NCBI GenBank assembly: GCA_027021705.1
Contig: JALUTT010000120.1
Span: 1 to 64,000 of the forward strand
DNA from: Anaerolineae bacterium
GTDB lineage: Bacteria > Chloroflexota > Anaerolineae > S140-20
Direction of reading: 5' to 3'
DNA: 64,000 nt
The first letter of the stretch is position 1. Each line of letters starts with the position of its first letter. The notes below the pieces were generated by a model. It did not search any database and was not told the DNA's origin. It worked only from the letters and a program-made list of their open reading frames with translations. This document shows, in pieces, positions 42,968-46,324 of the stretch. Position numbers and translations under genes: made by a program.

Positions 42968-44455
42968 ATGAGCACGCTTAAAATCTTCGCCCTGGAACTG
43001 ACCGTCGGCCCGGCCTCCTCCCCCGGCCACTACCCCGTCACCGCCCGGGGGCTCTCCGGCGGCGCCCGTGCCACGATGGTCCTCGATTCCAACGACCCTG
43101 ACTTCCGCGCTGCCCTCACCGCCATCGAGCAAGATGCCACCGACGAGGACCTCTTCCTCAACTTTGGCCGTCGCCTCTTCAACGCCCTCTTCACCGGCCC
43201 CGTCGAGGACGCCTACCGCGCGGCCCTGGGCTACGCCAAGGGGCAGGGGGGGAAGCTGCGGCTGCGGCTGCGGTTGGGCCAGGCCCCCGAGGTTGCCGCC
43301 CTCCCCTGGGAATACCTCTACGACCCTCAGCGGGACCTCTTCCTCGCCATCGCCACCGACACCCCCCTCTCCCGCTACCTGGACGTGGAGCAACTCTTCC
43401 CCGGCCCCCCGCCGGCCGAGCCCCCGCTGCGGGTGCTGCTGGTCCTCTCCAATCCGGCGGACCTGGACGACTACGGCCTCCCCCCCCTCTCGGTGGACCG
43501 GGAGCGCCGGGTGGTGGAGGAGGGGCTGGCCGCGCTGCGCCGGGAGGGGCAAGTGGAGCTGCAGGTGCTGACCCAGGCCCGGCGGGCGGCCATCAGCGAG
43601 GCGATGCGGCGCTTCCGGCCCCACGTCTTCCACCTGGTGGGGCATGGGGCCTTTCGGCGAGGGCGGGGGGTGGTGCTGCTGGAGCGGGAGGATGGGCGGG
43701 CCTGGATGGTGAGCGACCGGGCCTTTCGGGAGTTCTTCCAGGACCGGCCGGAGACGCGGCTGGTGGTGCTGAACGCCTGCCAGGGGGCGACGCGGGATGG
43801 TGGGGAGGCGCTGGCGGGGCTGGGGCCTCGGTTGGTGCAGCGGGGGGTGCCGGCGGTGGTGGCGATGCAGTACGCGGTGCGGGATGGGGCGGCGGTGGAC
43901 TTTGCGCGGGAGTTCTACCGGGTGCTGGCGGGGTGGGCACCGGTGGATGTAGCGGTGACGGAGGGGCGGCGGGCGGTCTACCTGGACTACGGGGTGGAGC
44001 AGCGGGATTGGGGGGTGCCGGTGCTGCTGATGCGGGACCCCGATGGCCTCCTCTTCCTGCCGCCGGAAGCCGAGCAGCCTGAGGCCGAGACGGCTGCTCC
44101 ACCGACGGGAGGGGTCCAGATCCACATTGGAGAGGTCCGCGACGCTTCCGTCTCCATCGGCGATGTCGCCGGCCGGGACATCCACAAGACGACGTCGCCG
44201 GCCGGGGCGGCGTCGCCTCCCACCGGTCGCCTGGCCGACCTGGAGGATCTTATCCGTGAGGTCTACGGCCTGCTGCGGGAGTACGAGGAGGTTCTCATCC
44301 TCACCGATGATCCGAAGGAACGGCTGCGGGCGCGCCGGCGTATCGAGGAACAGCGCACCCTCCTCCGGCGCTACCTATCGGAGTACCGGCAGCTGGCCCA
44401 GCGGTTGGGCCGACCCGTTCCGCCGGAGATCCAGGAGATGCTGTCCCTATGGTAG
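42968..44455 (+). CDS. CHAT (caspase-like) protease + amyloid-like motif + EAD-like helical domain
   Basis: LPWEYL, FHLVGHG (His), VVLNAC (Cys), VVAMQY, DWGVP; then VQIHIG...[11 protein letters not shown]; then a helical tail. Confidence 0.9.
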   Translation: MSTLKIFALELTVGPASSPGHYPVTARGLSGGARATMVLDSNDPDFRAALTAIEQDATDEDLFLNFGRRLFNALFTGPVEDAYRAALGYAKGQGGKLRLRLRLGQAPEVAALPWEYLYDPQRDLFLAIATDTPLSRYLDVEQLFPGPPPAEPPLRVLLVLSNPADLDDYGLPPLSVDRERRVVEEGLAALRREGQVELQVLTQARRAAISEAMRRFRPHVFHLVGHGAFRRGRGVVLLEREDGRAWMVSDRAFREFFQDRPETRLVVLNACQGATRDGGEALAGLGPRLVQRGVPAVVAMQYAVRDGAAVDFAREFYRVLAGWAPVDVAVTEGRRAVYLDYGVEQRDWGVPVLLMRDPDGLLFLPPEAEQPEAETAAPPTGGVQIHIGEVRDASVSIGDVAGRDIHKTTSPAGAASPPTGRLADLEDLIREVYGLLREYEEVLILTDDPKERLRARRRIEEQRTLLRRYLSEYRQLAQRLGRPVPPEIQEMLSLW

Positions 44456-45411
44456 AACAGAGCTACTTCGACCGGGTGCTCAAGATTCTGGCCCGCAACC
44501 ACGCCGACGCCTTCCTGCGGCTCGCCTTTCCCCACCGCCCCGTCCGCTTGCTCGGCACCGTCGAGAACGTCGAGATTGACCTGCCCGCCCAGCGGGTGGA
44601 CTTCGTCCACCAGATCGAGGACGAGGGGACCGAAAAGCTCCTCCACCTGGAGTTCCAGACCCGCCACGAGCCGGACCTCCCCCGGCGGCTCTTCGTCTAC
44701 TCCGGCGCCCTCACCCGCCGCTTCGACCAGGAGGTGCTGACCTTGGTGCTCTACCTGGAGCGGCGCCACCGGGTGCCGCCAGGGGTGTACGAGACCCGGC
44801 TGGGGGGCGAGGTGGTCAACCGCTTTCGGTATCCGACGGTGGGGCTGTGGGAGCACGAGGGGCGGATACGGAGCGGGGAGTTGCGGGCCTTGGCTCCGCT
44901 GCTGGTGGTGGTGGCCGAGGAGCGAGACGAGGGGGTGTTGGCGGAGGAGCGGCGGCTGATCCTGGAGGAGCGGGATGAGCGGCGGCGGGCGGAGTTGTTG
45001 GCGGCGGCGGTGACGGTGGCGAGCCGATACTTTGAGCGAGACTTTCTGTGGGACTTCTTCCGAGAGGAGGTGGAGATGATGCGAGGGAGCAGCTTCATCG
45101 AGGAGTGGATCGAGGAAGGCATCCGCAAGGGGAGGGAGGAGGGGATGCGTGAGGGGCTTCAGCAGGGGCTTCAGCAGGGGCTTCAGCAGGGGCTCCAGCA
45201 GGGGCTCTTGCAGGCCCGGCGAGAGGCTATCATAGATGTGCTGGTGACCCGCTTCGATCCCACCTACCGGTACCTCCGGGCGTTGGAAGCACGCCTGGAG
45301 CGCATCGGGGACCTGGGGACGCTGCGCGAACTGGTGGGCCTGGCTGCCCAGGTGGAGAGCCTGGAGGCTTTCCAAGAGCACCTGGACGCTCTCGGCGATC
45401 AGACCGGGTAG
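44449..45411 (+). CDS. Rpn/YhgA-like PD-(D/E)xK nuclease
   Basis: FDRVLK, RVDFV, LHLEFQT, RRLFVY; C-terminal EEG/GLQQ repeats. Confidence 0.85.
   Translation: MVEQSYFDRVLKILARNHADAFLRLAFPHRPVRLLGTVENVEIDLPAQRVDFVHQIEDEGTEKLLHLEFQTRHEPDLPRRLFVYSGALTRRFDQEVLTLVLYLERRHRVPPGVYETRLGGEVVNRFRYPTVGLWEHEGRIRSGELRALAPLLVVVAEERDEGVLAEERRLILEERDERRRAELLAAAVTVASRYFERDFLWDFFREEVEMMRGSSFIEEWIEEGIRKGREEGMREGLQQGLQQGLQQGLQQGLLQARREAIIDVLVTRFDPTYRYLRALEARLERIGDLGTLRELVGLAAQVESLEAFQEHLDALGDQTG
45079..45411 (+). CDS. Putative intragenic small C-terminal protein (RpnS-like), ~110 aa
   Basis: In-frame AGGAGGTGGAGATGATG: strong SD and tandem ATG at 45076/45079. Confidence 0.6.
   Translation: MRGSSFIEEWIEEGIRKGREEGMREGLQQGLQQGLQQGLQQGLLQARREAIIDVLVTRFDPTYRYLRALEARLERIGDLGTLRELVGLAAQVESLEAFQEHLDALGDQTG
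45154..45201 (+). repeat. 4 x 12-bp tandem repeat encoding GLQQ
   Basis: GGGCTYCAGCAG x4. Confidence 0.9.
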
Positions 45412-45415
45412 CTGG

Positions 45416-46324
45416 GTGGCTTCTACCCCGTTCCTCGCGATGACGGCATACGTAGATTGGTTCGTAGACCGCGAAAAGCAGTTCCAGGGCTTCCTCAAGA
45501 TGGTCGCCCGGGAGACGGAGAAGCAGGTGATGCTCGTCCAGGCTCCGGCCGAGATGGGCAAGACCTGGCTCATCCAGCGGCTGCGCCACGAGTGTCGCAG
45601 CCGGGGCATTCCCGTCGCCCACTTCGACTTCCGGGACCGTCGGCCCTGGGACTACCTGACCATCGTCCGGCAGGCCCGCGATCAGCTTGGCCCCGCCTAC
45701 TTCAACCCGATGACCCAGGTGATCAACGCCTCGACGGGCGTCAACGTCCAGATCACCACGGGGGCCGGCGCCGGCGGCGTGGACCTCTCCATCGCCGAGG
45801 CGGGCGGCCAGGTCGTCGAGAGCGAGGTCGCCGTGGGCGACGTGGCCGGCCGCGACATCATCAAGGACAACTTTTTCTTCGTCCAGGCCGATAGCGAGAC
45901 CGCCCGCCGGACCATTGAGATCCGCATCACCGACGCCTTCTTCGCTTGCCTGGAAGCCCTTTGCCGGGAGCAGGTTGTGGCTTTTCTCTTCGACTCCTAC
46001 GAGGATGTGACCGAGGAGGCGGATCGCTGGCTGCAGGCCCACCTGTTGGCGCGGGTGCGCGATGGTCTCCTCCCCAACCTCGTCATCGTCCTGGCCGGGC
46101 GGGAAGTCCCCCAGTTCGATACCTCCTGGCGTCACTGTCTGGCCCGCACGGGCCTTCACCCCTTCGACAAGGAGGATGTCGTCGAGTACATCGTGCGCAA
46201 GCGGGGGCTGACCGACCTGGACCTGGAGACCATCTACCGCACCTCCGGGGGCCATCCGGGCCTTTTGGGCAAGATGGCCGACATCGCAGCCCTGGAGAGC
46301 GAGGAGGACGAGGACTGGCTGTGA
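45416..46324 (+). CDS. Short STAND/AAA_16-like ATPase with internal amyloid-like insert
   Basis: FVDRE, variant Walker A APAEMGKT, Walker [13 protein letters not shown] sensor, SGGHP (GxP); no C-terminal repeats. Confidence 0.8.

Follow-up and report, generated by a model that had tools for sequence, protein, structure and literature searches.

What could a caspase-like protease and an ATPase, encoded on the same strand with one gene between them, have to do with each other when the two proteins align over nothing but a short peptide motif? We addressed this question for a locus in the Anaerolineae bacterium assembly GCA_027021705.1 (genome of 5,190,633 bases), where positions 1-64,000 of contig JALUTT010000120.1, hereafter the window, hold the genes for a CHAT (caspase-like) protease, an Rpn-like protein and a P-loop ATPase (Table 1). 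An earlier note on this DNA had taken the three for one amyloid-signalling operon. Our analysis favours, with a probability of roughly 0.7, a reading in which the CHAT protein and the ATPase form a split NLR-like switch, its parts joined non-covalently by a matched pair of beta-motif adaptors.

The shared motif within the genome

BLASTP of the CHAT protein against the ATPase aligned just the motif stretches (E 1e-6), at the two positions that the earlier note had given for them. The eight codons of the shared core, GDVAGRDI (45836-45859 in the ATPase gene, within a stretch running GVNVQ...FFFVQ), include three synonymous differences (GAT/GAC, GTC/GTG and CGG/CGC), and in a longer stretch of 13 codons the genes agree at 31 of 39 bases and the proteins at 10 of 13 residues; the conservation is therefore at the protein level, as had been proposed. 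The motif is also internal rather than terminal in both proteins, the ATPase copy lying between Walker A and Walker B and the CHAT copy preceding a helical module.

Among all six-frame open reading frames (ORFs) of at least 80 amino acids (aa) in the genome, exact GDVAGRDI occurs only in the CHAT and ATPase proteins of the window. Because the motif is restricted to two proteins in the whole genome, its sharing exceeds chance. One NB-ARC-like protein, encoded at the end of contig C96, has GDVAGRDV at its N-terminus, the only occurrence of this variant, and four further loose matches to the pattern lie in frames that look non-coding. The CHAT tail scored 97 against the C96 N-terminus and 72 against the insert of the adjacent ATPase, while the ATPase insert and the C96 protein matched in the core alone (score 47). 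This pair of CHAT tail and C96 protein, absent from the earlier note, is a better fit than the adjacent ATPase, and the protease may accordingly serve two receptors. The C96 gene (L001; 1-1221, minus strand) is truncated at the contig end and its product starts MSSPSGVRFDFDDLRRASVSFGDVAGRDVHK; the 1.7 kb upstream of it is repeat-rich and holds no effector gene.

One candidate identity for the motif, a generic low-complexity linker, was ruled out: the motif is present in three proteins of the genome alone and is kept despite synonymous change. A linker is also contradicted by the profile matches described below, which fall at defined positions of NTPases and proteases.

Linkage and co-variation in relatives

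We compared the gene neighbourhood in two sets of relatives. The closer set comprises 22 related loci from metagenome-assembled genomes of Caldilineaceae, Anaerolineae and Thermoflexales, with upstream flanks of 1.0-9.0 kb, and the distant set 14 loci of ATPase homologs at 35-45% identity, with flanks of about 8 kb. The Chloroflexota groups of these relatives are filamentous. In the distant set, a CHAT gene, an Rpn gene and a matched motif were all not found within about 8 kb. These 14 loci had suggested that there was no synteny elsewhere, a verdict that the closer relatives reversed: a CHAT gene lies upstream of the ATPase gene in 7 of the 22, directly so and 6-73 bases away in L083, L085, L086, L091, L096 and L097; in L082 a degenerate copy of the ATPase gene intervenes. 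That copy (8261-9001, plus strand) encodes 247 aa and has neither a GK[ST] P-loop nor the motif. The CHAT gene of L079 is 4.8 kb upstream of the ATPase gene, and in L099 the two are fused into one 784-aa ORF. L093 has a different protein directly upstream of its ATPase, a 167-aa non-CHAT product (8480-8980, plus strand) with an N-terminal matched motif (score 74). No Pfam, NCBIfam or PADLOC name could be given to it; with nothing but a weak TCAD2 match, below cut-off at E 5.5e-4, it is perhaps an alternative effector.

The CHAT partners in related loci end with the same kind of motif. We scored all CHAT tails against all ATPase inserts from nine unfused pairs (the window, L079, L082, L083, L085, L086, L091, L096 and L097). 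Every one of the nine tails scored best against its own neighbour's insert, with one tie; cognate scores averaged 76.6 and non-cognate scores 47.8, against a background of 29-47 for unrelated ORFs of the same loci. The observed pairing sum was reached by none of 200,000 permutations, and by 1 of 200,000 after double-centring, which removes row and column effects. Ranked from the ATPase side, the cognate CHAT protein came first in five of nine cases and second or third in the others. The pairs come from different species, with ATPases 40-67% identical, and are nonetheless kin, so that what is tested is whether cognate combinations outscore non-cognate ones, the pairs not being taken as independent origins. 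The matched region covers about 30 residues, made up of a GGVxhxh stretch, a Gly-rich turn and an hxhGDVAGxxhhK stretch. Both partners carry GDVAGGHI in L079, and those of L091 read VGNISEISGGSIIIAGGSV and VGDISNISGGEVIIAGGDV. The test that the earlier note had proposed, matched motifs in neighbouring CHAT and ATPase homologs, thus came out positive in the closer loci, where the pairs co-vary.

Loss of the motif on fusion

A search among longer proteins returned 13 matches at E 1e-10 or better. Together with L099 there are five CHAT-ATPase fusions of 544-784 aa (the others being P0181, P0183, P0185 and P0186), and in all five the CHAT-side motif is gone and the insert is shortened or deleted. 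Eight matches are ATPase-TPR fusions of about 1,300 aa, all of which keep GDVAGRDI; the remaining match, P0182, is an ATPase with an unnamed extension. Since the motif is lost in the first kind of fusion and kept in the second, the tag appears dispensable exactly when protease and ATPase are covalently joined. Known adaptor domains occur at the same places: Pfam EAD7 stands in for the insert in the ATPase homolog of L041 (E 1.3e-21) and sits behind the motif in the CHAT partner of L085 (E 3.9e-11).

The functional partnership of CHAT protein and ATPase, which the earlier note had put forward, is borne out by linkage, by co-variation in all nine pairs and by the loss of the motif on fusion. Taken at the level of sequence, these comparisons show the two proteins to be partners and the motifs to be a matched pair, apparently needed only while the proteins are separate. 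A complex prediction for the ATPase with CHAT residues 366-495 scored 0.00; its controls were not run, and it counts neither way.

A third partner encoded downstream

Behind the ATPase gene, 11 of the 12 long closer loci have an ORF of 1,061-1,672 aa, which is split in two in L096. It encodes a TPR protein in all six closer loci scanned, and a TPR protein of 1,014-1,456 aa stands in the same place in all six distant loci scanned. Judging from this gene order, the ancestral unit is CHAT, ATPase and then a TPR protein of 1,000-1,700 aa, that is, a split NLR, with the TPR protein as its presumed sensor. The window ATPase ends after its helical lid and has no C-terminal sensor repeats; in relatives, the TPR repeats are encoded by the separate downstream gene or fused to the ATPase, as in the eight longer proteins above.

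This conserved third partner was overlooked in the earlier note and is absent beside the window pair, where the gene after the ATPase encodes, as read from its sequence, an adenosylhomocysteinase instead. Contig C171 encodes a homolog of the TPR partner, which shares 48% identity with the N-terminal 300 residues of the L079 protein; two Rpn-like copies lie 4-6 kb upstream of it, and no ATPase gene adjoins it.

The gene between the partners

The ORF coordinates agree with the earlier description of three closely packed genes on the plus strand: the CHAT and Rpn-like ORFs overlap by 7 bases, and 4 bases separate the Rpn-like ORF from the ATPase ORF. The latter gap is probably larger. Relatives of the ATPase begin MTAYVDWF, so its start is probably ATG 45440 rather than GTG 45416, which makes the true gap 28 bases. 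Given the tight packing on one strand, the Rpn-like gene is probably co-transcribed with its neighbours. This packing is what speaks for a true three-gene operon in which an Rpn-like nuclease would be a second effector, as the earlier note had it.

We nevertheless give that reading hardly any credence, and the comparison with relatives contradicts it. An Rpn homolog is found in none of the 22 closer loci, between CHAT and ATPase or elsewhere, and in none of the 14 distant loci, whereas the genome itself has 27 matches to the gene, with full-length copies 86%, 76% and 55-60% identical. Other copies are found behind unrelated housekeeping genes: one follows an ABC transporter ATPase gene at 14 bases and another a DUF166 gene at 6 bases. 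Genes for an SPFH protein and methionine synthase adjoin further copies. At the DNA level the gene resembles the other copies over 44466-45392 only, inside the ORF. A classical insertion sequence element is not indicated, as no homology extends beyond the ORF, although terminal repeats were not sought. The genome motif scan found no copy of the motif in the Rpn-like protein. On these comparisons the gene is best described as a member of a proliferating family inserted between the partners, not as a conserved component. Its name needs a qualification too: similarity to TIGR01784 is present, but at 30.5 bits against a cut-off of 52.1, and no Pfam nuclease family was matched, so the earlier label "Rpn" becomes Rpn-like at best. 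Examples of other copies are C10:5828-6748, C176:58903-59820 and C171:55002-56982.

The ATPase and its insert

ATPase homologs were found in 28 of 401 sampled Chloroflexota genomes, and the family comprises 143 proteins at E 1e-5 or better, nearly all of them 285-304 aa long and unnamed. Family-wide patterns are AxxxMGKT/S at Walker A, hhhhDSYE at Walker B and an hhhAGR strand, whose arginine in the window protein (VLAGRE) we take to be the likely sensor 1 from the pattern of STAND and AAA+ proteins. The core of the insert, hAG[RG]x, is kept in 109 of the 120 best ATPase relatives, and GD[VI]AGRD[IVL] in 31 of the 120. By this alignment the motif-bearing stretch between Walker A and Walker B is a feature of the family and not a local oddity.

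The earlier label of a STAND-like ATPase is weaker than it was put: the Walker motifs are conserved, but every Pfam match is below its cut-off (ATPase_2, 23.3 of 33.2 bits; iSTAND, 19.8 of 24; also weak NACHT and AAA_16). Pfam, NCBIfam and PADLOC gave no name to the ATPase or to the helical tail of the CHAT protein. The AlphaFold2 (AF2) model of the ATPase has a mean predicted local distance difference test score (pLDDT) of 76.9, about 90 in the core and below 50 at residues 109-146; the modelled insert falls between a helix at 93-107 and a helix at 161-185, ahead of the Walker B strand. Its closest solved folds are the archaeal ATPase_2-type AAA+ proteins 2qen and 2fna (TM about 0.5), followed by Cdc6/ORC, TnsC and clamp loaders (TM also about 0.5). 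Model and alignment together suggest the nucleotide-binding module plus lid of a STAND-like NTPase, and we assign it to no named STAND family. Initiator-clade and STAND-like AAA+ proteins carry a specific insert in a comparable region, and the initiator-type insert faces the ring axis.

The motif in other proteins

Searched as degenerate DNA in the 401 genomes, the exact 8-mer has 9 sites in 6 genomes, and the reversed control has none. Seven sites are outside the window, five in real ORFs and two in spurious-looking frames. The real ORFs encode two Peptidase_C14 caspases with the motif behind the domain, one small protein, and two proteins that carry the motif at the N-terminus, one a NACHT protein and the other NB-ARC-like.

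A tag profile built from nine instances was searched among 1,835,955,588 proteins and found 59 representatives at E 0.001 or better. A Pfam scan at E 1e-5 or better covered 58 of these (the 34-aa P0040 was left out), of which 35 have no Pfam family and 23 have one. Fifteen carry an NTPase domain (nSTAND1, NACHT, NB-ARC or AAA_16); their motif is N-terminal in 14 and internal in P0059, a member of the ATPase family. All four CHAT or Peptidase_C14 proteins have the motif C-terminal to the domain. SAVED, PDZ, TPR-only and repetitive beta-helix proteins account for one each, their motif position not being classed. Many of the NTPases have a helical stretch of about 60 residues ahead of the motif. 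The Peptidase_C14 proteins and some of the small proteins (L048, L049, L053, P0006, P0010 and P0026) have a long tail of Gly-rich beta-like repeats, which ends in a helical DUF4404-like part.

This distribution bears on another explanation of the pairing, that the CHAT protease recognises or cleaves the motif, its own tail serving as pseudo-substrate or for auto-processing and the ATPase loop as substrate. Both copies do lie in exposed, unfolded inter-domain stretches, the core often has Arg-Asp, and co-variation with the protease could follow. The explanation is very unlikely all the same: the matched region of about 30 residues far exceeds a protease site, the arginine is glycine in many pairs (GDVAGGHI, GDVAGGNI), the motif also heads NTPases with no protease nearby, and fusions would have no reason for losing a substrate site.

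How the switch may work

For the preferred reading, a split switch joined by matched motifs, we propose the following sequence. In the free proteins both motif stretches would probably be unfolded; they are low-confidence in the AF2 monomers, where the flanking domains are confident. On activation the ATPase would oligomerise, its inserts would cluster and undergo beta assembly, and the assembly would recruit or template the CHAT tails. The tails once gathered, the protease domains would be brought together and activated by proximity, like caspases. We infer the binding of motif to motif, the proximity activation, the amyloid character of the assembly and a role in cell death or defence.

An amyloid-like assembly (cross-beta, one rung per molecule) is plausible as the most likely version. 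The pointers to it are indirect: a layout like that of amyloid signalling motifs, the unfolded stretches, and the beta-rung-like repeats in related proteins. The motifs could instead form a stable stoichiometric interface that is not amyloid, for example a small shared beta sheet, giving a constitutive CHAT-ATPase complex with no templating. Such an interface would account just as well for co-variation, linkage and fusion loss; in its favour, too, the motif carries charges and little Asn or Gln, and the EAD domains found at the same positions are folded adaptors, not amyloids. We consider it unlikely, as both stretches are predicted to be unfolded in the monomers, the placing of a single motif copy, ahead of many NLR-type NTPases at a free N-terminus or behind a caspase domain, is that described for amyloid motifs, and the caspase-type tails continue in the beta-rung-like repeats.

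Several observations weigh against the matched-motif switch as proposed. None of the distant loci has a CHAT gene or matched neighbour within their flanks, though most keep the insert, and 11 of the 22 closer loci have no matched partner within theirs. In view of these partnerless loci (11 of 22 closer, 14 of 14 distant), the insert must often act on unlinked partners or have another role. The small partner in L093 is not a CHAT protein, and L094 has only an unmatched CHAT-nSTAND1 protein 4.9 kb downstream. In the window itself, where the TPR gene is not adjacent and the Rpn-like gene separates the two partners, the system may be in decay or may have been rewired. The core of the tag is nearly invariant across very different proteins; it is more uniform than private pair tags need to be, which could point to a common third factor. 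As to amyloid, the motif is rich in Gly, Val, Asp, Ser and Ile, charged, and has few Asn or Gln.

A second candidate adaptor on the protease

The fold of the CHAT protein is confident over residues 1-365 of its AF2 model (pLDDT 83.9), and a C-terminal helical hairpin follows the beta motif. A word-based homolog search with residues 365-495 returned the query protein alone, which, at that sensitivity, leaves the whole tail without close relatives. Residues 421-495 alone gave ten matches in the same genome, and the hairpin is N-terminal in five and C-terminal in three of the ORFs inspected. The N-terminal carriers include an NB-ARC protein (L074, C92) and a P-loop protein (L072, C8). This module of about 75 residues, which matches no Pfam family, is also present in several small proteins (own-genome loci L070, L072 and L074-L078). 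By its distribution the hairpin behaves like an effector-associated adaptor domain and is a candidate for a second adaptor module; the protease looks wired to several receptors through two kinds of tag.

A bolder extension of the split-switch reading can be built on this, and we hold it tentatively, as possible rather than probable. With the tag placed in the nucleotide-binding domain, ATPase oligomerisation and amyloid nucleation would be one step: ring assembly would build the nucleus that templates the protease tails. One CHAT protein would at the same time be wired to several receptors by two tags, the beta motif leading to the adjacent ATPase and the C96 NB-ARC protein, and the helical tail to the C92 NB-ARC protein and the C8 P-loop protein.

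Features of the window

Table 1. Genes of the locus and sequence features within them (positions in the window; AF2, AlphaFold2 model)
Feature	Position	Strand	Evidence
CHAT (caspase-like) protease gene, effector	42968..44455	+	495 aa; Pfam PF12770 E 3.2e-33
HLVGHGAF with catalytic His226	43631..43654, codon 43643	+	invariant in 11-sequence CHAT alignment
LNACQG with catalytic Cys271	43769..43786, codon 43778	+	invariant in 11-sequence CHAT alignment
Effector-side beta motif, CHAT residues 381-407	44108..44188	+	alignment; AF2 pLDDT <50 at 370-417
C-terminal helical hairpin of CHAT, residues 421-495	44228..44452	+	AF2 helices 419-494, pLDDT ~90
Rpn-like multi-copy gene	44449..45411	+	320 aa; TIGR01784 E 3.2e-7, below cut-off
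P-loop ATPase gene	45416..46324	+	302 aa; probable start ATG 45440
Walker A APAEMGKT	45542..45565	+	G48, K49 invariant, T50 nearly (family alignment)
Receptor-side insert with beta motif, ATPase residues 108-157	45737..45886	+	between Walker A and B
Walker B AFLFDSYE	45980..46003	+	D193 invariant, E196 nearly (family alignment)
VLAGRE strand	46088..46105	+	A227, G228 conserved; hhhAGR form common in family

PF12770 covers residues 66-342 of the CHAT protein at 115.8 bits, against a Pfam cut-off of 24. With the domain above cut-off and the His/Cys dyad in place, the protein is a CHAT peptidase; the earlier coordinates of the two catalytic residues were correct, and both are invariant across the 11 CHAT proteins. 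In PADLOC-DB 2.0 no system model was matched by the window genes. The CHAT domain alone matched SAVED_CHAT (E 4.9e-16) and the ATPase had no match. No Pfam EAD family matched the window CHAT protein or ATPase at E up to 0.1.

Two features lie outside the three genes. In the spacer upstream of the CHAT gene (42740-42967), several frames translate to repeated KVQGARCK-like strings, which indicates short tandem DNA repeats. A 763-aa ORF at 48856-51147 (plus strand) has N- and C-terminal parts like GDP-mannose 4,6-dehydratase, split by an insert of about 400 residues that has a LAGLIDADG-like stretch and by eye looks like an intein.

Relation to known systems and significance

Short matched motifs are an established means by which fungi couple NLR-type receptors to death effectors, and the design principle of the switch proposed here, NLR-associated motif signalling by BASS motifs or EAD adaptors, is already in print.

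Dyrka et al. (2020, 10.1101/2020.01.06.895854) describe BASS motifs that link Bell and sometimes CHAT, TIR2, hydrolase or cyclase effectors to NLRs; BASS1-10 occur in gene pairs of effector and NLR, the copies within a pair being more alike than those between pairs. For BASS11 (Bab/Agp of E. coli), Ibarlosa et al. (10.1101/2024.11.07.622273) report amyloid signalling in phage defence. The window pair resembles BASS in having a short beta-prone motif behind the effector domain and in the NTPase receptor, in the likeness of pair members (cognate best in 9/9) and in its effector, CHAT being named as an alternative effector domain by Dyrka et al. It differs in that the receptor motif is inside the NTPase (residues 108-157) and not N-terminal, the unlinked C96 NB-ARC protein alone having it at the N-terminus; in that the receptor is divided between two genes, one for the ATPase and one for the TPR protein; and in that the effector motif is followed by a helical module. 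As for adjacency, the pair is 6-73 bases apart in six relatives and split by the 963-base Rpn-like gene in the window. By eye, nothing beyond the AGRD core is common to the motif and the BASS1 sequences given in the supplement of PMC8086366, and DVAGRD has no occurrence among the BASS sequences of that supplement. The motif string was in no paper text searched; the bioRxiv supplements (the BASS tables and Fig. S5 of Dyrka et al.) may hold related motifs.

Kaur, Burroughs, Iyer and Aravind (2020, eLife, PMC7159879) describe EAD1-10 and bDLD as adaptors of NTP-dependent conflict systems and propose that they couple by homotypic interaction. Copies there lie on the core NTPase and on the effector, often in adjacent genes; adjacent copies are closest, and others are elsewhere in the genome. 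The motif studied here shares this arrangement, with copies on NTPase and effector, alike where adjacent and found elsewhere in the genome as well, and EAD7 occupies both motif positions in relatives. In contrast, EADs are small, folded and mostly helical domains, whereas ours is a beta motif of about 30 residues with no Pfam EAD match, and the core system is neither of the MoxR-vWA nor of the GAP1 type.

With STAND/NLR proteins that have caspase-like effectors (NB-ARC- or NACHT-TPR/WD proteins, or the 1,072-aa CHAT-nSTAND1 protein of L094), the locus and its relatives share a P-loop NTPase, TPR repeats and a caspase-fold protease, and fused forms are known for each neighbouring pair. Unlike them, three separate genes are joined here by a peptide tag, and the ATPase, of about 295 aa, is below the NACHT, NB-ARC, ATPase_2 and iSTAND cut-offs. 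What is new is that the receptor tag is internal, that the switch is divided among three genes, that the tag belongs to a new and widespread family associated with caspase-fold effectors, and that natural fusions serve as controls.

Few motifs of this sort come with natural controls such as these, in which fusions drop the tag and relatives replace it by an established adaptor domain. With their help one can test if the tag governs the choice of partner and the activation of the protease, and if the assembly is amyloid in nature or a plain protein interface. Through this tag family, numerous uncharacterised proteins of nSTAND1, NACHT, NB-ARC and SAVED type are connected to CHAT and caspase proteins, and the family could serve to pair unlinked receptors and effectors in genomes.

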